Below are positions 33,061 through 47,149 of a DNA stretch of 64,000 bases, in pieces. A program made the translations under genes and the position numbers. Source of the stretch: Escherichia phage vB_Eco_F22; sequence record OP870143.1; one strand, written 5' to 3'. Below the pieces are notes generated by a model. That model had not been told where the DNA came from and ran no database searches. It worked only from the letters and a program-made list of their open reading frames with translations. Every line of letters begins with the position of its first letter. Position 1 is the stretch's first letter.

Positions 33061-33231
33061 ATGAACAAATTTACTATTCACTGGCTCAATGGAAAGGTTA
33101 GTTCTTTCATGGGTGGAGAACCTGCTGAAGGAAACAAAGCATTCCACATTGATTCAGAAGGCTGCAAAATCTTAATACCATATGCTTGGTATAAAGATGG
33201 TGAAGTTGAAGCATTAAAAAAGAGTAGTTAA
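33061..33231 (+). CDS. Possible small protein (about 56 aa) upstream of the structured non-coding region
   Basis: ATG..TAA read by eye; not in the ORF track. Confidence 0.25.
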   Translation: MNKFTIHWLNGKVSSFMGGEPAEGNKAFHIDSEGCKILIPYAWYKDGEVEALKKSS

Positions 33232-33999
33232 TATCGTGAAGGGTTCTGTCAGAATCCTTTGAGATAGGAACTCCTATCATAACCTTTCTTAACTTAATCT
33301 TTGCCGTATGGCACTGACGCTAGGGGTGGCCCCCCATCCGTCAGACAGACTATTTTAAGAATGGGTTATCTCAGAAAATGTAAAGCAACATTCGGGTTAA
33401 TCAATGGCCTCTCCTATAGAGGCCATTTCTGAATCTTAGGCTATATCCCAAAGGTTAATATCTTTGGGATAAGGCTTCAGATCCCTTATCAAACTAACCG
33501 CTCAATGTTGAGCATTTTAATCACATAAGCCCCTATATGGGCTGGGTTAAATGTCGGATAGCATAGCTACCTACAGCATCGAATTGTTAGGTCTTACATG
33601 CAATATAGGGTATAAAGGGAGGACTCGTCCCCTCCCTCCTATTATGACATCCTATCAATGAGTACACTTCAAGTGGTAGGCCTGCCGCTCTTGAAATTCA
33701 TCTGCAAAGCTGGAAGTGTACTCTTTGATAGTTTTCGTAAGCGATTATGCGGTTTTTTAGAAACGAACCAATAACATAAATGCAAACGATGATGTTGTTC
33801 TGATGGCAGCCTAATAAGCCAAGCGTCAGTCAGGAGTGAGTCGTCCTGATTATCAAACGACCGTGGAGTACTCCCGTCCATGTATTAGAAACGGGGGACC
33901 AATTACCAGTTGCACGAGATGGCTTGACATGTTCAAGTTTGGACTAAGTGTGACACCGCTAGATTGGAGGGCTGCTGCGGTAAGCTATAGACTCCAACC

Positions 34000-34270
34000 G
34001 GAGGTTCGAATCCTTCACTGGTAACCAATTCAAAGTAGCACTGCATAGAACGCGAAAAGGTACAGCGACGTTAGCCATACGGTATTGTGAGGTTCGAGTC
34101 CTCACCTATGAGCAGTGACGACTGCAACAGTGCTACTCTGAATTGGAAGAATTAAGACGGGTCTGGTGAAGTAGATGGGGTTCGATTCCCCCAGGTGGAG
34201 TAATCCACTAGCGTGCTTGGTGCACGAATAAGACTTAATACTGGTGGTTCGATTCCATCCCCCGTTACCC
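34000..34270 (+). other. Four tRNA-like T-arm modules (GGTTCGAATCC, GGTTCGAGTCC, GGTTCGATTCC x2) that do not fold into canonical cloverleaves
   Basis: T-loop motifs spaced 88, 88 and 67 nt; module 1 is followed by ACTGGTA-A-CCA whose 7-nt complement TACCAGT lies about 107 nt upstream. Confidence 0.3.
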
Positions 34271-34461
34271 AAAGTCGCCAGGTACTTATGGCAAATGGGT
34301 AGTAACGAACTAGTCATTCGTCAAACGCCCACCTAATTACGAGTCAGCAAGAACGCCTTCATTTAAACTTAAACAAAAAAGCTTAACGCAATAATTATGT
34401 AGGGGTATGTAAGGATTGCGAAGAAGGAGCCAGTTAGAGCCTGGCATGACTCACCCATTAT

Positions 34462-34535
34462 GTCCACTTAGCTTAGACTGGGAAAGCAACCGACTAATAA
34501 TCGGAAGGTCACTGGTTCAAATCCAGTAGTGGACA
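34462..34535 (+). tRNA. tRNA gene (74 nt); anticodon loop CTAATAA, anticodon tentatively AAT; CCA not encoded
   Basis: Manual cloverleaf: acceptor GTCCACT/AGTGGAC (7 bp), D-stem GCTT/AAGC with GG in loop, 4-bp anticodon stem CCGA/TCGG, T-arm ACTGG-TTCAAAT-CCAGT. Confidence 0.5.
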
Positions 34536-34769
34536 CCTATTCAGCAGTAACATAGTCCTGATTGCATAGCACTCTAAAGACAACACTGGTAAGACAGTCC
34601 AGTGGCTGCTAATGTATTGTTATTCCCCTCGACGGGAATTTCGCTAGTGAAGGTAACACTTAAAAATCCAAAGCTACGTCTTACTACTATCGGGCTATCA
34701 ACCCACGGTCGCTTAACCCTATAGCGGTAGTAGTTTGACGGCCTGCCTCGTTGACTGCGTTAAAGTCAC

Positions 34770-34811
34770 TAAGTCCCTCGGAGCCGTCACTCTGGGGGAC
34801 TTTTTTATTTG
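34770..34811 (+). terminator. Intrinsic terminator closing the structured non-coding region
   Basis: Stem AAGTCCC.../...GGGGACTT with about 15-nt loop followed by TTTTTTATTT. Confidence 0.5.
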
Positions 34812-34994
34812 AGAACTACTTATTGGACGATTCATATGATTGACCTAATCTTAACACCGTATGCCTATGAGGTAACGGATAACCAAGGACGTAAGTCTTT
34901 GGTGTTTGCAGGTAGCGTAGCCTATAACAACGCAGTCATGTTTAAATACAAACTCAAACCACTCTATGAGGCTAATAATGGCAACAGTAAGTAA
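34809..34994 (+). CDS. Hypothetical small protein (61 aa; TTG start in track, ATG at 34836)
   Basis: ORF starting inside the T-run of the upstream terminator; weak RBS. Confidence 0.3.
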   Translation: MRTTYWTIHMIDLILTPYAYEVTDNQGRKSLVFAGSVAYNNAVMFKYKLKPLYEANNGNSK

Positions 34995-36301: not shown

Positions 36302-39300
36302 TTAGTTTACCAGGTTCATCCAAGGGTTCAGGTTGTGAGCACGTAGACCTTGCCCAAAGCCCCATGAGTAATCCAGCCCACCCTTAGCAGCAATGCTAAA
36401 GATGTTGTCCTGAATAGGCAGACCAACATTACCAAACATGGTAGGAGTTGGAGCCAGCATTGCCATTGCTGCATGCACCGGGTTATTACGAATCATGGAC
36501 ACTGCAACCTTAGCTGAACGAATCTTAAAGTTGTAGAACCACATCAAACCAACACTTTCCATATACCCACGGAAGCGACCTGGTAAACGGTCATAGTTAA
36601 CAAACTCTTCAGTTACACGTCCCAGTGCTTCTTCACGAGTCTTACCTTTACGCTGAGTCAATTCATCATAGATGATTGCTTTAGCGATAAAGTCAGAGTA
36701 CTCAACTGTCTTTTGGATACCCTGGAACAGAGCAGTATCCTTGGTGATAAGTGCATAACGTCCAGCAGTACGTACAGACTTAGGTAACTTATCTGCCAGC
36801 TTTTCCATATATTCGTGAAGTTTGCCTTCAGTAATCAGAATGTCATCACGACCGATACCAGCATCTGCAATTGAAGAGAACTCACCAGCTTCCAACAGAG
36901 GCCAGATGCTCATACGCTTATGGCTATCAGTAATGGACTGAATCTCAGCCTTAAGTTTACGAATCTGGTTCGGGTTAGTAGCTGCACGTAATTCTGCTTC
37001 TGCATCTACCTGACGCAGACGAGATTTCAGGTACTGGTTAATCTCAGCAGTTTTCTGTGGAATGCTTTTAGCAATGTTCTTAACCGGTACACCACGGGCA
37101 ACCATCTGGTAAAGGTTAGCCAAGAAGTTAACAGCAGGTACGACTACTGACTTAACTACAATCAGAGTCTTGGCTTCTTTAACTAAGTTTTGAACCAGGT
37201 TCTCACCACCCATTGTGTACTTATAAGCACGGTTGCCAAATACACCCAGCATAGCTTTCTTGAAGGTATCCAATGTTTCCGGGGACCAACGAGAATTACC
37301 AGACCAGGCATCACCTACAGAAGCTGCACGATAACCAAGTGCATCATTCAGCATGTCACGACGCACCCACAGTTCACCCTCACCAAACAGACTTTCTGCT
37401 TTCTGACGTGTTTCACTGTTCATTAGCTTAAGAGCATCAGCAGTTACTGGGTCCAGTTTAGAACCAAGAAGGTTAACGTACTGGGATTTATTAGAGGCAG
37501 ACATCTTAATGTCGTTCTCATACATGCTATGCAGGTTCTCAATCAACATATTGTTGAAACGCTGAGCCTTAGCTTCTTCCACCTGACGACCACGCCATAC
37601 ACCAATTGCACGGGCAAGGTGATTCTCGCCTTCAATGTGCTTCAGCATGTTAGGGTCAATGGATTGCTCATAGGCAACCACATTACCTTTGTCATCATAT
37701 ACAGGCAGAAGTGGTTCATTACCACGTTCACCACGAGCCAGTGCTTTAGTGATACGGTCTACGGAAGGCTTGTCAGTAATACGACCAGCTACCATCGAAC
37801 CCATCGTAAAGCCCGTACCGATGTCTACACCACCAGCAGTATTACGAACGTTTTGTAGGATACCCTGTGAGAAAGGAGCCTGTGCCTGTACCGGTGCGAA
37901 GTAGTAGCTGCGTGCTGGACCACGGTTAGCAGAGCTACCTTGATAAGTACCCAGACGTACATAAGATTTCTCAATCAAATCTCCAAACTGGCTATCTTCA
38001 GCAACAATCAGATTAACACCCTGTTTAGTCTCACTAGGGATATGCCCTTTGTACTGGTTCAAGGTTGCACGCATATCAGACTTGGCTTTAGCCATTTCAT
38101 CTTTACGCTGACCAACCAGGTAAGAAGTAGCAAAGTCCATTCCATCAACTTCTGTCTGAGCCAGAGAAGATAACATCTCACGGTCGGACTTGTTCATTGC
38201 TTCCAGTGCATACAGGGTAATCAGTTTATCCAGTTGAGCTACATCTACAGTAGAACGAGCAGCCTGACGTTCACCAAGCATACGAGAGATTGCAGTAGCA
38301 TTACGCAGCAGGTTATTACCGACTGTACCGTTAATCATGAACTGAGCCAGTTGCTTAGATTTACGACTAATAAGAGGCCAGTTACGACCAGCTTGTTTCT
38401 GCAAATCTGCTTCCAGCTTATTCACTTCACGGTCAACAATCTTCTGGTCAGATAGTAGGTCACGGATTTCAGCCAGAGACATAGTGTCACGCAGAACAGC
38501 TAAGTCAGTTTTACCCATGCCAGTGTGCATTGCTTTCCACTCATCGTTAGTCAGCTTACGGCTGAACTTAGATGCGATAGTGGTAGGCAGGTGTTCACGG
38601 AATTGCTGACGGTCTGCTTGTACCTGTGCACGAACTGCTTTAATCAAATCGTATACAGAAGCATTACTCTTAGTACGACCAGTTAAGTCATTAACCAGGT
38701 CATGGAAGGGTTGCCATACCTTACCCTGGTTCATTGCAGCCATAACACCTTCAGCTACAATTGCACCATTCTTCTCAGTAGCAATAGCAGCCACCAATTG
38801 TGCAGCATGGGCAGCACCTTTAACCAATGGATTCTTAGTATTAGCTGCAACTTCGCGAGCACTTTCTAAAGCACGAGTAGACAGTGCATCAATAGAATCC
38901 ACCAGATACTGGTTAGCACGATCAATAGCATTACCACTAGGAGTAGCAACGGAATCATAGAATGACTGTGCATTGAGGCTAGTCTGCATGATTGTCTGAG
39001 CCAGTGCATCCATACCTTCCTGTACGTTGGTAGCTTTAGTGTCACCTGCTACACGGGCATTCAAGCTAGACATTGCAGCAGTACCAATGTTAGTCAGCAT
39101 TGCATCAATGGTATTACCGGATTTCTTATCTGCTTTCATAACAGGAATGTTAGCCAGTACGTTACGTACCTCTTCACTTACCATTGCCAGACCAACAAAG
39201 GTAGGCAGTAAGGAAGAACGACCCTGTGCATCAAACTCGATATTGTTAGCACCCATGATGGTATCGAACTTCTGCTGTGCATAGTAACGGTCAGCAGGGT

Positions 39301-42300
39301 TGGTACTATCCGGGTCAGCCATGAATGCTTCAACGGTCAGATTCTTAGTAACGTGTGCATAGTATTCCTGTGCACGAGATAGAGCAGCCGGACTAATAGC
39401 AGCCTCAGTAGCCAAAGCAGCAACGATATTAGTGAACAGGCGTTGTTCCTGCATATTCATAGTGAAACCATGAGCCTGAACATCACGGGTTACTTTAGTA
39501 GCATTCACTACTGCATCAGAGAACTTACCTTTACGAATTACTTGTTGCACTGGTTCTGAACCAATGTAGTTAGTAATCAGCTTATCAAAGGTCTGCCCCA
39601 ATTCTTCCAGACGGGTATTGTCGCCATACGCCTTGTTATGGAACAAGGTAGTGTCCTTGGATACAGCAGCCGTAGGAGCCTGCCCACGCATAACTACGGA
39701 AGAGTTAAACAGTAAGCCAGAGAACATATCATCTGCATTAGCAGGAGCTTTCTTACGACCGAATACCAGACGCTTGATTGCTTCATACACAGACTGAACC
39801 ATAGTCTTCAGTGCAGTAGTCTTCTTCTGCTTACTAATTAGTTCACGGTTGGTTAAGCCCCAAGCCATGTATTCGTTCAGTGCAGCAGCTTTAGCCATTG
39901 CCGGTTCAATGAAGCCATTAGACAAGTGACCGTTAATGGTATTGAGTGCATCAGCATATGCTTCACGTACTGCCGGGGTTTCATCCTTAACATCCAGAGT
40001 ACGGAACTGGTTCATCAGGTCTTCAATATTCTGAACTGCTTCATTAGGAGTACCCTCATAATGAGCCAGTACAGATTCAAAAGTAGAAGCATGTACCAAT
40101 TCATGAACCAGAGTCTCTAAGGAAGGGGTAACTAAGTAGATGGTCTTATCATCAAAGTTAGTCCAGCCATATGCATTACCAGCTTCGGCAGCTTCAATAT
40201 CTTCCGGTGCTGGGCGAGTAATGTTCTTCTCAATAGCATAAGCATCCAGCTGAGCAGGAGTACCGTAAACAACCTTGTAGTCTTTAGCAGCAAGGGATTT
40301 CTGTACTTCTTTCAATACCGCTTGCTGTTCAGGAGACATCTCTTTAGCCAGCTTAGTGATAGCAGTATTAGACAGCAGACGTACACCAGACTTCAGTACA
40401 CGACCAACCTGTTCCATTGCTGGTACTTCTTTAACAGGTGTTTCTTCAGCAGGTACTTCTTTCACTGGTTCTGCTTTAGCAGCACGTACTGCATCACGGC
40501 GCTTATTTAATTCGGCATCAAACAGTTCGTTTAGCTTAGCTACTTGCTGGTCTACAGTCAGACCTTCCAGAGAGATTTTACCGTTGTTCACATAAGGAGC
40601 ACCTACAGCAGCCATCTGGTCAACAGTGGTCTGTACCTGGTTCATTACTTTGTGGCGAATATCTACACCTAAAGCAATGTTACGCAGATTACGTTCAATG
40701 AGGTTAACACCGGATTTCTCAATCATATCAATCTTATACTGCCTGTCTCCCTCAACACGACTGATATGGGAAAGCTGTTCAAAATCTAAAGCGGAACGAG
40801 CAATGTCATCAATTGTCTTATCTGACAACTTATTAAAGTCTACGTTCTTCATGAACTTAGAGAAGGAGTCATACACGTTCTTAATAGGATTGCCCTGCCA
40901 AGAAGTATAAACAGCCTCATTAGCTTTACGACTTGCATCAGTGATGTCATTGATACCAATGTTCATACCATCAAAGATTTTCAGGGTATTCTTCGGAGCA
41001 CCTTTCATAGTAGAAAGGGTCTGCATCATCATGCCATCACCAGTACCAATGGTCATAAATGGAATACCTGCAACACCTGCTTGTGAAGGAGCATAGATGC
41101 TCATTGGCACACGCATACGGTCGTCTAAGTTGGTAGCCAGTACTTGGTTAGCAACATCAGTATTCTCACTGCCAGCAATGTAAAAAGTCTGTGAACCAGT
41201 CTCAATCATTGGAGCCAGTGGAGACAGGGATTTCTGAATTTCATTCAGCTCTTCCTGTGTTAAGAAATCGCCCTTCTTCCAGGTTGGGTCTTTTTCTTTT
41301 TCTGCCAGTTTAGCCTGTACTGCTTGTTGGAACATATCCTGCAATACTAAAGACTGAATTTGAGTAGCCTTCTGCAAGTTCTCAGTGGAGTGCATCAGAC
41401 CTTCACCAACGGTGAACCGGATACTTTGTCTCATTGGTTCAACGAAGAAGTGCAACATGTTCTCTTGTAGGTTCTTAAGAGCATCACCAGATACAGTAAA
41501 CTCCTGGGGATCTAACTCACCAGTCAGAGCACCATCTACTTCCTTAATAAATAACTTACCTTTACGCTTAGCTGGAATCTTACCAGTCAGTGCTTCCATA
41601 GAAGTAAGGAAGGTATCCAGCATAGCCTGAGCATCTGCCTCAGACGCAGCCTCCTTACCAAACAATGCCATAGCTGGGGAAATGCTAGGGTCAGTAGCAC
41701 GTGCTTGTAGAACGTCACTGAGGCGTTCGTAGATGGCGTCAGTAATTGCACTAACCATCTTGCCAGCAATACCACGAGCACCAGAACCATAGATGGTAAT
41801 GGTCAGGGGGTTTTTAGCGATGCCACGTTTCAGGTCCAGAGTACCGTCTTCATTCAGGTTAAAGTCTTTAATGAACAGGTCCATTAGCTTCTGGAGATGA
41901 TCCATCTGGCTCATAACAGGAACGTTGTTACGGTAAGCACTACGTAATTCATTTAGATAGAATTGCAAACTATTGGTAGATGCTTCATACAGGTCAACAT
42001 TATCGTCGATAGAGCAATGTTCGTTCATCGTTTTACCAGCACGACCAAAGAACAAACCACCCTTGGCAGTATTCTTAATCCAATTTGGAGTGAACTTACC
42101 TCCAGTCATTAATACCATTGCGTTGATTGGGCCGTTGGTTACACCATCGGCTTCAACGTACAGAGGAGTATTAAAATTAGCACGGTTATCACTGTTCAGG
42201 TAACGGGCATATTCCATCAGAGCCATGAGAGCCACGAAGGATTTGTTATCACCCAAAGAGGTCTTCAGGATATCTACTGCATCTGTCGGTAAGTGCCCAG

Positions 42301-45300
42301 ACTTATCAAACTCAACCATCATATCAACAGCAGGTTTCAATTTGCCTTCCAGAGCTTTAGTCAACTCTTCAGACATAGCTTCACGGGACATTTTATGTAC
42401 CTTGATGCCTAATGCCTGAGCCAGTCCTAACTGGAAGTCAGAGAACGCTTGGCTATTTTCATTACTCAGGTCAATAGTAGAGAAGGTTGGCAGAATTGCT
42501 TCACGAACCAGCTTACTGGATTGTGGGTTGTTCTTACCAAGCATCTGCATACGACCTACTCGGGTCATGTTATAGCCATAGTGAATGGGGGTATCCAAAC
42601 CATTCTCTTGTTCTTTTAGATGATTAATTAAACCGAACAGAGAATCATATGCCATAGATACTGATAAGTTCTTACCTTCCAGTGATTTAGCATTATTTTT
42701 ATTCAGCAAATCAGGATTAAGAGTACCAGCACCCATTAGTTCCAGAATGCTGTCTCGACCCAATGCTTCATAGAAGTTAACCATCGGCATGTGTACACGG
42801 AACTCAGTAGCCTGTTCAGCTTTCAGTGCAGCTTTCTGTTCGGGGGTATTCTTAACAGCAGGATTACGTAACTGAGTTTGGGCCACGGAAGGAATGTCGT
42901 CACCAAAGTACATTTTCTCTTCCGGATTTACCAACACAGCTTCTTCAATTGCTGTAGGGAAATTATTAATAGGGTCTTTATCAGCCAACTTATTAATAGT
43001 GTACAGACCAATAGTCTTATTAGAGTCCGGGTCAATCTCAGACACATCCAGCATAGTCTCTGTAACTGCACCCATCTCAATGAGGGAAGACAGAATCTCT
43101 GTAGCCATTGCCACTGGAATGCCTTTTGTATAACCCAGTGGTGCATTAGGGTTACGATTCAAACCCCAATAAGATTCAATCTTCTGAGCCAGTGAGCTAG
43201 TAGCTTCGACCAGGGTCTGGGCATTCTCAAATTCAGCCAGAATACTTTCTGGTAACAAGGATGCTTCTACTCCAGTAATGGCAGCTACGTCTTTTATGTC
43301 TTTAATGGCAGCATTCTGTGCAGCAGTCAGTCGCCATTGCAGACCAGCAAGCACGGCAGTCTCTAACAACTGGTCATTGAACTTAAAGGTATCACCATCT
43401 TTTTCAACGATATTCAGCAGTTTGCCACCTACCCAACGGTTAGCTTCAGTACCTTCTGCAAAACGTTTACCAACGTTCTTATTAGCAAGGAACTTAGCCA
43501 GTCGTTCAGACAGAGTAGTCTTCAGTGTTTCCCCAAAGTCCATCAAATCTTGGTAACGTTCTAACACATCACCCGTGAGAGCGTTATTTTCTTTTTGAGT
43601 GAATGCTTCAAAGCGAGCAGCAGAAGACAGTGCTTGCTTAATATCAGCTAAAGGAGATTCAGAACCAATGGTACGGGACTTGGGTTCTTCTGGCAGGGTA
43701 AATGCTTTCAGGAACTGGTTCGGTGTCTTTTCATTGTTATAGACAGGGAACACTGTTTCCATCTCAGAAAGAGGTTTGCCACCTACTGTATAATCTGCTT
43801 TTAGCTGAGCCAGCGATACTTCATCTTTCTCCACGTTGTTAGTGTTACGGCCAGAGGTATCTACACCAACCAGAATCTGTGCATTATTGGCTTCAACGAA
43901 AGATTGAACAGTATTGAATTGTTCAGCGGTCAGCTTTTGATTATCAAACAGTTGTAGGGACACAAACGGTTGTTCACTGCCTTTATAGAAAGTAGAGCGA
44001 ATAGAACCAGTATCCAAAGACATATCACGATAGCCATCATGCCCAAATACGTCAGACAGGCTGATATGGTCGCCATTAGAACCAACCACAGTACCATCAG
44101 CAAACAACCACGGACTCTCTCTACGGTCACCACTCTTATTAAGAGTTTCCTGTGAAATGGTATTTTCTTTCACATAAGCATCTCTTTCAGATTCAGTAGG
44201 TTGCTCAATGGTATCCTCATTAGTGAGGGTAGCATCTACTGTTTCAGGCTTAGTAGTAGAAACTTCTTCTGTTTTTGGGCTAGTCTCCTTAGTAGGAGCA
44301 GTCTTATTTTCTACCACTGGTTTAGCTTTAGGCTGTACAGTAGTAGTGTCCTCTTGCACTGGTGCAGGAGTTTCATCAACCTGATTCACTGGTTCATTAG
44401 TCTGTTGAGACTGAGTGGCATCAAGACCACCTTGACGGAACTCTTTAACTACCTGGGCAGCAGGCTTGTTCAGACGTGAATCCAACGAGGTAACTTTCAC
44501 ATGAGAAACATTAAGCTCCGGGTAAGCCGTAGCAAGTGCATTAGCAATATCAGCTACGGTTTTGGCCTCCAGTCCTACTTGCTGTGCAAACTTAACAGAC
44601 TTGGTATCGTAAGGATTAACACCGAGGCCAGTACGACTACGTACCCATTCACGGGAAGGCGAGAGAGCCTGATAATGAACAGACTTATTCTTATCCGCAT
44701 TCCCCGAAATCAGATGCTCATTCAACGCTCCGACCTTATTCTGCATGTGCTGGGCGAACTTCATAAAGTCGCTCAGATAAGCGGAGGCCAAATCGAAGTT
44801 ACCAGAGTTATACGCAGAACGAATGCGTTTCGCATGTTGCAACGCAGAGTACTGTCCTTCATTAGAACGAGACTCGTCGGTTTTAATCTGTTTACTAACA
44901 ATGTCTTGAGGACGTAAGCCTAGTTCTTCTGCTTTAGCGTCGAACTCTCGTGCACCCTGTAACAAGGCAGCAGCAGATTGCAGGGCAGCACGTTGACGAT
45001 TCCCCAGTGTAATCTTACCTTCGCTTGCGTGCTTCAGAACCATGTTCACTGAATCTGCATCCAGTACTTCTGGAGATACATCAGCAGCCATAGCAATGTT
45101 GTTTGCTTGGGCTTGATTAGCTTCTTCAGTAGCTTTCAGCTTACCTGCTTCAGCCTGTTCCTGAATCATAGAATGGATGGCACGGAATGCACGAAGTACT
45201 TTAGGGGTATTCTGTACGTTAGCCATCAGACCAGAGAACTGGTCTACGATTGCAGCAGCAGGGGAACCCTGTTCCAGATTAGCCAGAGCACCCGGGTCAC

Positions 45301-47149
45301 GGTTAATGAAGCTATCCATGGACATGATGTTGTCATACATCTGGATTGCAGCTTCCATTTGAACGTTAGGGTCTTCGGCAGTATTAACCAGGTCAGCCAT
45401 CTTCTGAATAGCTTCTACACGGTTAGTGGAACCAGAAACAGCTTCACGGATTACTGGGTTAGCTTGTTCCAACTCTACCGGGTCGAACTTCATTGCCTGA
45501 GTTAAGTCAGCAGCATACTGGGTAGCAGCAGCTTTCTCTTCCGGAGAAATATCCATTGCATCTACTGCTTCCTGTACAGTTGCTTGTGCTTGTTCTGCCT
45601 GAGCAGCAGCTTCCTGTGCAGCAGCATTAACCGTAGCATCAGCTACAGGGGATGCTTGTTCATTACGCTTGGCAACTTCTTCACCACGTTGAACCAGAAT
45701 GTTAGTAAGAGGAGATGCAGCTTTTGCTAGTGTTTTACCAACCAGAGAAGCACCAGCCAGGGTAGTACGAAGAGTAGGGCCAGCAGCAGCACCGGCAGCT
45801 TTAACAGTTGCACCAGGGACTTGAGCAACTCCAGCACTACCGAAGCCATAAAGTGCACCAAGACCTGCTTGCTCACCAACCCCTTTGAGGGTGTCACGGG
45901 ATGCATCAACGTTTTCTTTGATTGCAGTATTCTGTGCGAACTGACCAAAGCCGGATTGAATACCTTCCTCTACAGTTTCACGCAGCATATTAGAACCAGC
46001 ACCTGCCAGTGAACCTACCTTAAGTGGGTTAAGTTCAAAGCGAGATACCAGTGGGCCGGTAGCAGCAGCAACTGGAGCAGTTAAGCCAGCAGCAATGATA
46101 CCTGTTTCAGATGCAGTCTGACGACGTGCTTCATCAGGAGATAAACCATCAGCAATATGCTGTTGGTAAACAGGAGACTTACTTGCCAGTTCTTGGTGGG
46201 ACATCTTCATGATTTCAGAAGCAGTCTGTTGGTATGCACCACCAGCTTCCATACCACCGATTGCAATAGCAGGTGCAGCAACACGACCAGCAGACAGTGC
46301 AACCTGTGCAGGACGTGAACCTAACCCAGCAGCTAAGGTAATACCCTTAACAGCTTTATCACCACCTACCATTACTTTACCGAGTGCAGATACACCACGA
46401 ATAAGTGGACCACCGGTAAAGAGGGAACCAACACCTTCACTCAGTCCGTCAGAGGCAGCCATACCATTATCAAGTGTATTAGCAACAGAATCGAAAGCAT
46501 CACGACCAATACGAGACAAGGAGGCAACCAAATCGTTCTCCCCATTTTTGATGTCTTGTTCATAAAGTTTCTGATTCTTTTGAGCAGAAATCTGGTTCTG
46601 ATTCTGAACAACCTTACGGGTAGCATTCAGTGCATCAGACTGTAGATTGTGTACGCCTTCATTCAACCAATCCATCCCGGAAGCAATGGTTGCCCCGGCA
46701 TTATCATTGACCAAACCTGTGCCAAGAGCAGCAATGCCCCCAAGGGTATTAGCAACACCAAGACCAACACCAGAAAGAGTATCGCCAAATGCTTCTGCGT
46801 TAGTACGTTGTTTAGATAAGTCCTGACGTACAACATCCGCAGCATTAGCTCGGCTATTAAGAATTTGTAGACCTTGCTCATTACCGTATTTATTAATGAT
46901 TTCTAATGGGGAGGCTTGAGTGAAATCTGCCTGAAGTGAACCTGGTTCGAATGCACCGATTCCAAGATTACCTACACGTCCGGTCTGGAGATTGTAAGCA
47001 TTCTCTGGGGTTAATTGGAAAGGGATTTGCCCTTGTGCAGCTTGCTTCTGAGAGGTTGCAGTAGAGACATCGACTCGCTTAGCATTAGTGATGCTGTCTG
47101 CGAAACCTGCCAGACGGTCAAATGTTGACATAGCATGTTTCCTGTTCAA
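36302..47149 (-). CDS. Giant virion RNA polymerase (N4 gp50-like vRNAP), 3615 aa
   Basis: Single uninterrupted 10.8-kb ORF; central T7-like palm motifs LYVEADGVTNGPINAM (A), KNPLTITIYGSGARG (B), KIFDGMNIG (C); first gene of the leftward block. Confidence 0.8.
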   Translation of the reverse strand: MNRKHAMSTFDRLAGFADSITNAKRVDVSTATSQKQAAQGQIPFQLTPENAYNLQTGRVGNLGIGAFEPGSLQADFTQASPLEIINKYGNEQGLQILNSRANAADVVRQDLSKQRTNAEAFGDTLSGVGLGVANTLGGIAALGTGLVNDNAGATIASGMDWLNEGVHNLQSDALNATRKVVQNQNQISAQKNQKLYEQDIKNGENDLVASLSRIGRDAFDSVANTLDNGMAASDGLSEGVGSLFTGGPLIRGVSALGKVMVGGDKAVKGITLAAGLGSRPAQVALSAGRVAAPAIAIGGMEAGGAYQQTASEIMKMSHQELASKSPVYQQHIADGLSPDEARRQTASETGIIAAGLTAPVAAATGPLVSRFELNPLKVGSLAGAGSNMLRETVEEGIQSGFGQFAQNTAIKENVDASRDTLKGVGEQAGLGALYGFGSAGVAQVPGATVKAAGAAAGPTLRTTLAGASLVGKTLAKAASPLTNILVQRGEEVAKRNEQASPVADATVNAAAQEAAAQAEQAQATVQEAVDAMDISPEEKAAATQYAADLTQAMKFDPVELEQANPVIREAVSGSTNRVEAIQKMADLVNTAEDPNVQMEAAIQMYDNIMSMDSFINRDPGALANLEQGSPAAAIVDQFSGLMANVQNTPKVLRAFRAIHSMIQEQAEAGKLKATEEANQAQANNIAMAADVSPEVLDADSVNMVLKHASEGKITLGNRQRAALQSAAALLQGAREFDAKAEELGLRPQDIVSKQIKTDESRSNEGQYSALQHAKRIRSAYNSGNFDLASAYLSDFMKFAQHMQNKVGALNEHLISGNADKNKSVHYQALSPSREWVRSRTGLGVNPYDTKSVKFAQQVGLEAKTVADIANALATAYPELNVSHVKVTSLDSRLNKPAAQVVKEFRQGGLDATQSQQTNEPVNQVDETPAPVQEDTTTVQPKAKPVVENKTAPTKETSPKTEEVSTTKPETVDATLTNEDTIEQPTESERDAYVKENTISQETLNKSGDRRESPWLFADGTVVGSNGDHISLSDVFGHDGYRDMSLDTGSIRSTFYKGSEQPFVSLQLFDNQKLTAEQFNTVQSFVEANNAQILVGVDTSGRNTNNVEKDEVSLAQLKADYTVGGKPLSEMETVFPVYNNEKTPNQFLKAFTLPEEPKSRTIGSESPLADIKQALSSAARFEAFTQKENNALTGDVLERYQDLMDFGETLKTTLSERLAKFLANKNVGKRFAEGTEANRWVGGKLLNIVEKDGDTFKFNDQLLETAVLAGLQWRLTAAQNAAIKDIKDVAAITGVEASLLPESILAEFENAQTLVEATSSLAQKIESYWGLNRNPNAPLGYTKGIPVAMATEILSSLIEMGAVTETMLDVSEIDPDSNKTIGLYTINKLADKDPINNFPTAIEEAVLVNPEEKMYFGDDIPSVAQTQLRNPAVKNTPEQKAALKAEQATEFRVHMPMVNFYEALGRDSILELMGAGTLNPDLLNKNNAKSLEGKNLSVSMAYDSLFGLINHLKEQENGLDTPIHYGYNMTRVGRMQMLGKNNPQSSKLVREAILPTFSTIDLSNENSQAFSDFQLGLAQALGIKVHKMSREAMSEELTKALEGKLKPAVDMMVEFDKSGHLPTDAVDILKTSLGDNKSFVALMALMEYARYLNSDNRANFNTPLYVEADGVTNGPINAMVLMTGGKFTPNWIKNTAKGGLFFGRAGKTMNEHCSIDDNVDLYEASTNSLQFYLNELRSAYRNNVPVMSQMDHLQKLMDLFIKDFNLNEDGTLDLKRGIAKNPLTITIYGSGARGIAGKMVSAITDAIYERLSDVLQARATDPSISPAMALFGKEAASEADAQAMLDTFLTSMEALTGKIPAKRKGKLFIKEVDGALTGELDPQEFTVSGDALKNLQENMLHFFVEPMRQSIRFTVGEGLMHSTENLQKATQIQSLVLQDMFQQAVQAKLAEKEKDPTWKKGDFLTQEELNEIQKSLSPLAPMIETGSQTFYIAGSENTDVANQVLATNLDDRMRVPMSIYAPSQAGVAGIPFMTIGTGDGMMMQTLSTMKGAPKNTLKIFDGMNIGINDITDASRKANEAVYTSWQGNPIKNVYDSFSKFMKNVDFNKLSDKTIDDIARSALDFEQLSHISRVEGDRQYKIDMIEKSGVNLIERNLRNIALGVDIRHKVMNQVQTTVDQMAAVGAPYVNNGKISLEGLTVDQQVAKLNELFDAELNKRRDAVRAAKAEPVKEVPAEETPVKEVPAMEQVGRVLKSGVRLLSNTAITKLAKEMSPEQQAVLKEVQKSLAAKDYKVVYGTPAQLDAYAIEKNITRPAPEDIEAAEAGNAYGWTNFDDKTIYLVTPSLETLVHELVHASTFESVLAHYEGTPNEAVQNIEDLMNQFRTLDVKDETPAVREAYADALNTINGHLSNGFIEPAMAKAAALNEYMAWGLTNRELISKQKKTTALKTMVQSVYEAIKRLVFGRKKAPANADDMFSGLLFNSSVVMRGQAPTAAVSKDTTLFHNKAYGDNTRLEELGQTFDKLITNYIGSEPVQQVIRKGKFSDAVVNATKVTRDVQAHGFTMNMQEQRLFTNIVAALATEAAISPAALSRAQEYYAHVTKNLTVEAFMADPDSTNPADRYYAQQKFDTIMGANNIEFDAQGRSSLLPTFVGLAMVSEEVRNVLANIPVMKADKKSGNTIDAMLTNIGTAAMSSLNARVAGDTKATNVQEGMDALAQTIMQTSLNAQSFYDSVATPSGNAIDRANQYLVDSIDALSTRALESAREVAANTKNPLVKGAAHAAQLVAAIATEKNGAIVAEGVMAAMNQGKVWQPFHDLVNDLTGRTKSNASVYDLIKAVRAQVQADRQQFREHLPTTIASKFSRKLTNDEWKAMHTGMGKTDLAVLRDTMSLAEIRDLLSDQKIVDREVNKLEADLQKQAGRNWPLISRKSKQLAQFMINGTVGNNLLRNATAISRMLGERQAARSTVDVAQLDKLITLYALEAMNKSDREMLSSLAQTEVDGMDFATSYLVGQRKDEMAKAKSDMRATLNQYKGHIPSETKQGVNLIVAEDSQFGDLIEKSYVRLGTYQGSSANRGPARSYYFAPVQAQAPFSQGILQNVRNTAGGVDIGTGFTMGSMVAGRITDKPSVDRITKALARGERGNEPLLPVYDDKGNVVAYEQSIDPNMLKHIEGENHLARAIGVWRGRQVEEAKAQRFNNMLIENLHSMYENDIKMSASNKSQYVNLLGSKLDPVTADALKLMNSETRQKAESLFGEGELWVRRDMLNDALGYRAASVGDAWSGNSRWSPETLDTFKKAMLGVFGNRAYKYTMGGENLVQNLVKEAKTLIVVKSVVVPAVNFLANLYQMVARGVPVKNIAKSIPQKTAEINQYLKSRLRQVDAEAELRAATNPNQIRKLKAEIQSITDSHKRMSIWPLLEAGEFSSIADAGIGRDDILITEGKLHEYMEKLADKLPKSVRTAGRYALITKDTALFQGIQKTVEYSDFIAKAIIYDELTQRKGKTREEALGRVTEEFVNYDRLPGRFRGYMESVGLMWFYNFKIRSAKVAVSMIRNNPVHAAMAMLAPTPTMFGNVGLPIQDNIFSIAAKGGLDYSWGFGQGLRAHNLNPWMNLVN

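Follow-up and report, generated by a model that had tools for sequence, protein, structure and literature searches.

The inverted repeat at 34025-34146 of Escherichia phage vB_Eco_F22 is best explained as the stem of a plus-strand RNA hairpin, a helix scaffold that presents a tRNA mimic at its tip; we give this reading a probability of roughly 0.6. All positions are those of the window, that is, the whole stretch of 64,000 nucleotides analysed (record OP870143.1). The repeat itself is real and far beyond chance. A repeat search returned a 5' arm, CCAATTCAAAGTAGCACTG, and a 3' arm, CAGTGCTACTCTGAATTGG, each 19 nt long, 95% complementary and 84 nt apart, with a single A-C mismatch at 34033/34138. 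The search and the sequence itself thus bear out the arm positions and the pairing at 18 of 19 positions that an earlier, sequence-only reading had reported. At up to 3 mismatches the 19-mer matches the 64-kb window at 2 places, its own and that of the partner arm, where 0.01 would be expected by chance and none of 100 shuffles gave 2. The 131-nt stretch folds at -50.5 kcal/mol, compared with -30.5 +/- 3.7 kcal/mol for shuffled sequences (z = -5.5).

The window comes from a Gamaleyavirus (G7C/PhAPEC5-like N4-like coliphage, Schitoviridae). The 1.7-kb region around the inverted repeat matches 343 phage records, the best of them at 86-96% identity, and a 3615-aa ORF (36302-47149) matches the protein that is annotated as virion RNA polymerase in the relatives. 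The inverted-repeat unit lies within a 1.6-kb stretch without credible ORFs (33232-34808), flanked by gp46-like genes on one side and gp48/gp49 on the other. Major features of this RNA island are summarized in Table 1. Its tRNA-Ile is conserved in Gamaleyaviruses; an A at position 34 of tRNA-Ile is unusual for bacteria and phages. Four further T-loop motifs (GGTTCGAnTCC, at 34001, 34089, 34177 and 34244) fall in three tRNA-like units, namely the upstream unit A, the inverted-repeat unit and the downstream unit C, none of which is called by any tRNA finder. Unit A ends in ...ACTGGTAACCA, and its CCA makes up the first three bases of the 5' arm of the inverted repeat; its closing stem covaries in relatives (UACCAGU/ACUGGUA to UAUCAGU/ACUGAUA). 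The fold of unit C has a z-score of -2.4. Units A and C, with their closed acceptor-like stems and T loops, stand on either side of the inverted-repeat unit. Phage tRNA islands are increasingly linked to counter-defence.

Table 1. Features of the RNA island around the inverted repeat (window positions)
Feature	Position	Strand	Remarks
Paralogous hairpin I1	33652-33731	+	22-nt arms, 91% complementary; 36-nt loop without T arm
tmRNA-like mRNA-like domain	33732-33901	+	PK1, tag frame and two more pseudoknots; RF04321 sub-threshold
tRNA-like unit A (upstream)	33904-34027	+	closing stem UUACCAG/CUGGUAA; T arm 33999-34015; encoded ACCA end
5' arm of 19-bp helix	34025-34043	+	repeat search, covariation
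Closing ("acceptor-position") stem, 5' strand CAUAG	34044-34048	+	fold; partner 34106-34110
D-arm-like hairpin, stem CGC(G)/(C)AGCG, loop AAAAGGUA	34051-34067	+	read from sequence
Degenerate anticodon-position stem-loop	34069-34081	+	3 bp and 7-nt loop in the window
T arm, 6-bp stem GUGAGG/CCUCAC, canonical 7-nt loop UUCGAGU	34087-34105	+	sequence, alignment
Closing stem, 3' strand CUAUG	34106-34110	+	covariation
5-bp hairpin GCAGU-GACG-ACUGC at three-way junction	34112-34125	+	fold, alignment
3' arm of 19-bp helix	34128-34146	+	repeat search, covariation
tRNA-like unit C (downstream)	34156-34270	+	closing stem GACGGG/CCCGUU; T-loop-like hairpins at 34177 and 34244
tRNA-Ile, anticodon AAU	34462-34537	+	65 bits; sole called tRNA (ARAGORN, Rfam)
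Intrinsic terminator, end of RNA island	34771-34802	+	annotated as terminator in PhAPEC5

Another element of the island is a hairpin at 34385-34445, present also at locus L011:1555-1625, with the conserved loop UAUGUA(UA)GGGGUAUG(U/C)A(A/G)GG and a covarying stem (CGCAAU/AUUGCG vs CCGUAAU/AUUACGG), and followed by a second small hairpin. The motif, which has no matching Rfam family, is common to the Gamaleyaviruses and one T1-like group and occurs at 20 of 134 loci that carry the tag domain discussed below. GenBank records of Bas96 (L003) and Mimir124 (L203) annotate the region homologous to 33200-34900 with 9-11 short reading frames (30-70 codons) on both strands, each labelled "hypothetical protein". 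Such calls over the RNA island are probably spurious, since its conservation is of the RNA type.

The sequence-only reading had described an 84-nt insert with a GTGAGG-TTCGAGT-CCTCAC hairpin, which is indeed there, and had called this hairpin a tRNA-like T arm. The T arm is present, but the description understated the case: the whole insert is a tRNA-like cloverleaf. Its closing stem CAUAG/CUAUG has 5 bp, is 100% paired in homologues and changes from U-A to C-G at one pair in Salmonella phage TR2. The D-arm-like stem is invariant in the alignment, and its loop holds A14, A15, G18 G19 (34059-34060) and A21 as in tRNA. The anticodon-position stem, degenerate in the window, has 5 bp and a CAAAC loop in the 86-nt variants; G-C, A-U and G-U all occur at one of its pairs. 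It is followed by a 5-nt equivalent of the variable loop, GUAUU (34082-34086), whose last base U corresponds to position 48. The T stem is 100% paired, with G-C replaced by A-U in 4 sequences. At the three-way junction, the loop of the GACG hairpin and its flanks (TGACGA) are invariant and its stem changes from G-C to A-U in TR2. The GG of the D loop and the first five bases of the T loop (UUCGA) are invariant in all 9 homologues. The insert thus carries the nucleotides of a tRNA elbow and core: A14, R15, G18 G19, A21, Y48, T54-Psi55-C56-R57-A58 and G53:C61. Because D loop, variable stretch and T loop can be numbered as in tRNA, we read the tip as a mimic of the tRNA core and elbow, including the D loop, the T loop and a Levitt-type 15:48 pair. 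This likeness comes from positions read by eye, since the tRNA covariance model (RF00005) gives no match at E <= 10 on 34015-34160 (146 nt).

The unit is nevertheless not a tRNA, an intron-containing tRNA or a tmRNA: ARAGORN predicts no tRNA or tmRNA at the unit, and Rfam is likewise empty there at gathering and permissive thresholds. Its acceptor equivalent is a 5-bp stem continuous with the long helix and not an open stem of 7 bp, and the anticodon-position loop is UAGCCAU (with A at 33) or CAAAC on a stem of 3-5 bp. There is no usable anticodon. With the long helix closing its acceptor position, the unit in its present form cannot be aminoacylated. Compared with the acceptor of a standard or permuted tmRNA (RF00023, RF04321, RF01850), the third closing pair is C:G, there is no free end, and GCA stands where CCA is expected. 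A permuted tmRNA order (T arm, acceptor hairpin, D loop) was also rejected, because the covarying CAUAG/CUAUG stem encloses the D, anticodon-like and T hairpins.

Covariation, the absence of which, together with that of further copies, the sequence-only reading had named as a refutation, was found when the hand-drawn structure was scored on an alignment of nine distinct homologous sequences. Pairing holds in 95% of pair cells, and 15 pairs have changed on both sides, a large share of the covariation in the long stem coming from one paralogous sequence, TR2. None of 500 shuffles scored as high, and only 28-47% of cells were paired when partners were slid. The 19-bp helix and five inner helices keep their pairing through compensatory changes, and no disruptive single change occurs in the inner helices of the 9 homologues. 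The long RNA helix, one of two explanations offered in the sequence-only reading, is therefore upheld. The strand can be determined as well. The C-G pair at alignment columns 18/110 is U-G in four sequences, which pairs in plus-strand RNA but would correspond to C-A in RNA from the opposite strand; selection has therefore acted on the plus-strand RNA helix. T loop and D loop, too, read correctly on the plus strand only. The tRNA-Ile and the terminator of the island also lie on the plus strand.

These patterns bear on the proposal that the tip is a decaying tRNA pseudogene, a neutral filler in an inter-tRNA spacer hairpin whose stem serves the processing or 3'-end protection of neighbouring RNAs. 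The tip is hypervariable and often absent, its anticodon arm is degenerate and differs between variants, and tRNA finders fail on it, all as expected of a decaying gene. However, across two genera and two different stems the core shows only compensatory substitutions in helices 2, 3, 5 and 6 (closing stem, D arm, T stem and GACG hairpin) and no change in its loops, which points to purifying selection on the fold. Moreover, the same core has been moved intact between stems (TR2 vs Gamaleyavirus). We therefore consider neutral decay unlikely. The core is at the same time rare. Homologues of the whole unit occur in only 12 of the 343 related phage records and in 2 IMG/VR contigs, and the core is therefore dispensable for the phage. 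A scan of 185,579 bacterial species (one genome each) did not recover the core pattern; all 62 matches were chance hits in high-GC genomes, without a T arm, and a bacterial origin of the core was rejected on these grounds.

Elsewhere among the relatives, the arms carry other tips, as a check for presence or absence in homologues, proposed in the sequence-only reading, brought out. The 84-nt insert is replaced by unrelated sequences of 35-52 nt, of at least five kinds, while the arms stay in place. The arms of Mimir124 are identical to those of the window and hold a tip of 41 nt. Other tips measure 52 nt in PhAPEC5, 41 nt in UE-S5a and locus L075, 38 nt in L071, 46 nt in L094 and L136 and 35 nt in L054, and covarying arms occur with five of these other tips (PhAPEC5, UE-S5a, L071, L094/L136 and L054). 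In L054 the arms, CCATTTAATAGTAGCTCTG and CAGAGTTACTATTAAATGG, pair at 19 of 19 positions through compensatory changes.

Tip replacement could also be the work of an element acting at the DNA level, and the sequence-only reading had offered terminal inverted repeats of a miniature mobile element as its second explanation. The unit would then be a MITE, or its arms would be sites of recombination or inversion for cassette exchange. The inverted arms are nearly perfect, and tips have been swapped cleanly at the arm boundaries. In PhAPEC5 the tip shows a T-loop-like motif on the other strand, the result to be expected if the segment between the arms had been inverted. Recombination could use the homologous arms as flanks, and a deletion in phage G7C runs from the 5' arm of the paralogous hairpin I1 to the 3' arm of the inverted-repeat unit (I2). 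Against this, there is one copy only: a search for further copies of the 19-mer, also suggested at the outset, found none in the window beyond the two arms. The flanks (AA/CCAATT...AATTGG/AAG) are not duplicated as a target site would be, no transposase lies nearby, and the core is absent from bacterial genomes. A mobile unit would move arms and cargo together, and here the reverse is seen, with arms retained and cargo exchanged. The compensatory evolution of the arms, with its strand-specific U-G pairs, points to selection on an RNA helix and not on a protein-binding repeat. A mobile element or DNA-level recombination site is thus a very improbable account of the repeat, and the first of these can be set aside. 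Recombination at the conserved arms is nevertheless compatible with the RNA scaffold that we favour, as a route by which tips are exchanged.

The inverted-repeat hairpin has a paralogue in the same island. The arms of hairpin I1 resemble those of I2, and the 3' arm of I1 passes directly into the tmRNA-like domain at PK1. Across relatives the I1 stem bears at least 8 types of tip, and in TR2 the same tRNA-like core sits on a stem of the I1 type, beside the tag domain; the core has thus moved between stems as an intact unit. G7C (L204:730-842) has a single hybrid I1/I2 hairpin, CCAATTCGTGAGAAC.../...GTTCTCACTAATTGG, with a T-arm tip of the type found in Klebsiella phage Pylas, and the existence of this hybrid shows that I1 and I2 belong to one family. 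The hybrid stands in place of the tag domain, unit A and the inverted-repeat unit, all of which are missing from G7C. The ends of its deletion, at the I1 5' arm and the I2 3' arm, are those that recombination between paralogous stems would give.

Tip exchange extends beyond the Gamaleyaviruses. The tip family of PhAPEC5 is found again in the T1-like loci L050 and L107, on the homologous stem, and 29 distinct T1-like sequences show many unrelated tip forms. Tips differ between otherwise close phages, both on the stem before the tag domain and on further copies behind it. T1-like loci (L025-L140) also have a hairpin, ACAACAGGTAAGAGCATT...AGTGCTCTTTCCGTTGTGG, behind PK3 and about 165-260 nt past the transcript start, with a covarying stem and many unrelated tips, and lambdoid prophages have up to three such hairpins around the tag domain. 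A T arm is found in a minority of tips, namely in the core described here, in a second type in Pylas and G7C, and in a few in lambdoid prophages.

The tmRNA-like domain lies 240 nt upstream of the unit and ends in ...ACGGGGGACCA. Rfam tmRNA models score 30-39 bits on it, under the gathering score of 47; the best, the permuted tmRNA RF04321, reaches 38.8 bits on 33732-33901, and the beta_tmRNA model also aligns over the tag region. The tag frame (33782-33814) has no start codon, runs from GCA to TAA and consists of 10 codons, ANDDVVLMAA*. Pseudoknot analysis supports the main form of PK1, whose second stem, as read from the sequences, changes from CUUUG/CAAAG to UUAUG/CAUAA in N4-like phages. 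All 98 distinct sequences pair in stem 1 of PK2, where C-G is replaced by U-A and A-U by G-C and C-G. The domain is widespread. It was found in 759 GenBank phage records from unrelated families, including N4-like and T1-like phages (in the latter behind a sigma-70 promoter), HK620 (in the late leader between qut and tQ), Ackermannviridae, the tRNA clusters of Felixounavirus and a Vibrio siphovirus. IMG/VR contributes at least 120 stretches of viral contigs, and of 5426 complete E. coli genomes 135 carry the domain. It is never annotated, either in the phage records or in the E. coli genomes. The frame has exactly 10 codons in 118 of the 120 IMG/VR loci listed. Variants of the tag (ANDDVVLMAA, ANEEMYLAVA, ANDEQFLAVA, ANDDLMLMAA, ANDNTFLAVA and others) follow the pattern AN[DE]x..L[AM][AV]A. 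Third codon positions are twice as variable as the others (20 vs 10 and 8 for first and second positions), and the tag peptide accordingly appears to be under selection.

No tRNA-like domain belonging to the tag domain was recognised by ARAGORN or Rfam: neither the window nor any of 140 related loci gave a tmRNA with ARAGORN -m, and Rfam at gathering thresholds returned only tRNAs. A search for an acceptor piece acting in trans (a T arm with complementarity to the 7 nt before PK1) gave only 6-of-7 matches to ordinary tRNAs, at chance level, and this candidate was dropped. Closure of the T1-like transcript between its 5' and 3' ends was likewise rejected, the C1 5' end having no partner by eye. 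The searchable literature contained no match for a phage tmRNA-like RNA of this kind, for tmRNA in N4-like phages or for the tag peptides; papers on tmRNA databases list other phages only.

Two further observations concern this domain. The stretch at 33729-33738 (UAGUUUUCGU), the most conserved part of its 5' region, is perfectly complementary over 10 nt to codons 3-6 in the tag frame of host ssrA (ACGAAAACUA; L205:341-350, nt 97-106 of E. coli ssrA). No longer stretch of complementarity connects the two RNAs. Antisense pairing to host ssrA is a weak lead, and the match may be due to chance, since 17-19 of 500 shuffles also reach 10 nt and the HK620 and CBA120 versions reach only 8 nt. In Pylas (L036:9535-9610), ARAGORN calls a tRNA with the anticodon CUA (labelled Pyl) within the cluster of tRNA genes upstream of the tag domain, a possible amber suppressor.

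It is of particular interest whether the tRNA-like tip supplies the partner that the tag domain seems to lack. The tip would then be the SmpB-binding tRNA-like domain of a split phage tmRNA, joined to the tag domain at 33732-33901 in cis in TR2 and in trans here, and the phage would run its own trans-translation with the tag ANDDVVLMAA. In TR2 the core is carried on a P2-like stem just 5' of PK1 and the tag, which is the place of the tRNA-like domain in permuted tmRNA genes. With the tag frame under selection at the peptide level and PK2 covarying, the tag domain needs some tRNA-like partner, and none has been recognised. The structure of the unit argues otherwise. Its acceptor is closed by a long helix, without a free 3' end, CCA or G3:U70, and the helix exits from the acceptor end and not from the anticodon side, which from known geometry would be sterically wrong for the ribosomal A site. 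The distribution also fits poorly. The core is found in few relatives, as noted above, and in the window it sits on a hairpin separate from the tag domain, the two being linked only in TR2. Most phages with the tag domain lack a T arm on the stem, T1-like phages lack any 5' arm, and G7C has a T-arm tip without a tag domain, so a tRNA-like tip is not an obligatory partner of the tag. On these grounds of structure and distribution, a split tmRNA is less likely than a helix scaffold, and we regard it as improbable.

Under the helix-scaffold reading, we infer that the unit would be transcribed on the plus strand as part of a polycistronic island of tRNA, tRNA-like and tmRNA-like RNAs. The 19-bp helix, extending from the CCA of unit A to just before unit C, is conserved and its tip exchangeable, and the whole hairpin is paralogous to the P2-like stem that in TR2 carries the core next to PK1 and the tag. 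The double-stranded stem may stabilise the tip, and it probably directs endonucleolytic processing as well. A role as scaffold or processing site is suggested by the position of its ends next to the two neighbouring units, and a site of the RNase III type by its length, since 19-24 bp is the size of an RNase III substrate. That length is borderline: 19 bp with one A-C mismatch is at the lower limit for RNase III, and the helix reaches 24 bp when the closing stem is included. The tRNA-mimic tip would engage a host factor that recognises the tRNA elbow or core, acting as a decoy or as a recruitment handle. Candidate partners are tRNA-modifying or tRNA-processing enzymes, SmpB, or a tRNA-targeting defence nuclease.

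The unit may also be one piece of an undescribed modular phage RNA system that combines a tmRNA-derived tag template, spread over hundreds of enterobacterial phages and prophages that are not related, with long-stem hairpins that exchange their tips at very high rates, some of the tips being mimics of tRNA or of the tRNA-like domain (TLD) of tmRNA. We put this forward only tentatively, as a possibility that we would not call probable. If it were true, these phages would be using a split or TLD-less tmRNA to rewrite or hijack the trans-translation of their hosts, and the hairpin tips would be a cassette system shaped by an arms race. The context, a widespread unannotated tag template and hypervariable tips, is in fact more surprising than the unit itself. 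A translated tag template without a recognisable tRNA-like domain would directly challenge the present view of how trans-translation is delivered, and the hypervariable tips, borne by conserved stems, would make up a novel type of fast-evolving RNA cassette.

Several known systems share features with the unit. T4 species 1 and 2 (rnaC/rnaD) are stable tRNA-like RNAs encoded in a phage tRNA cluster. Like the unit, they are small structured RNAs associated with phage tRNAs, with which they are co-transcribed; their 3' parts resemble tRNA, and host tRNA enzymes process them. A long stem with an exchangeable tip is not among their described features. The leader-trailer stems cut by RNase III in rRNA operons, and the RNase III stems of phage T7 early RNAs, are helices of about 20 bp that bracket a structured RNA inside a polycistronic precursor; the stem of the unit has only 19 bp with a mismatch, or 24 bp when stacked on the closing stem. 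The resemblance to tmRNA is twofold. The unit has a T arm and a D-loop element and no anticodon, as the TLD of tmRNA does, and its core stands in TR2 on a helix before PK1 and a 10-codon tag ending in AA; the consensus of the beta-proteobacterial two-piece tmRNA also resembles the tag region. Unlike tmRNA, the unit has no open acceptor stem, CCA or G3:U70, its topology is not permuted, ARAGORN is silent and Rfam sub-threshold, and phages with the tag domain can do without it. RNAs consisting of a TLD alone, which inhibit tmRNA, have been described in phages (e.g., mycobacteriophage DS6A).

Membership in the Y RNA family was rejected. The Ro-binding motif GNCGAAN0-1G is absent from the 5' arm of the unit, no Ro60/TROVE domain was found in the ten large ORFs scanned (of 15 with at least 380 aa), and the unit matches no tRNA, tmRNA, Y RNA or other Rfam family at E <= 10. 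It sits in a polycistronic tRNA-like array and not beside rsr and, to our knowledge, typical E. coli K-12 hosts lack Rsr. With motif, TROVE gene and model match all absent, the unit may work like a Y RNA without being one. The architectural likeness is close. In both, a long helix formed by the two ends carries a mimic of the D arm, T arm and tertiary core of tRNA, the anticodon-position arm is reduced, and the RNA does not function in decoding. In Yrn1 of D. radiodurans the terminal helix takes the acceptor position of the tRNA-like module, and the order of elements in its description, acceptor-position helix, D arm, anticodon-like arm and T arm, is that of the unit (PMC4201824). Y RNAs with a tRNA-like domain also occur in phages, beside tRNA and tmRNA genes, and in M. 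smegmatis YrlA undergoes RNase P cleavage and CCA addition (PMC4201824). We regard the Y RNA family as the closest architecture in the literature, and the unit as a new example of tRNA mimicry on a helix scaffold, resembling both Y RNAs and TLDs and a member of neither.
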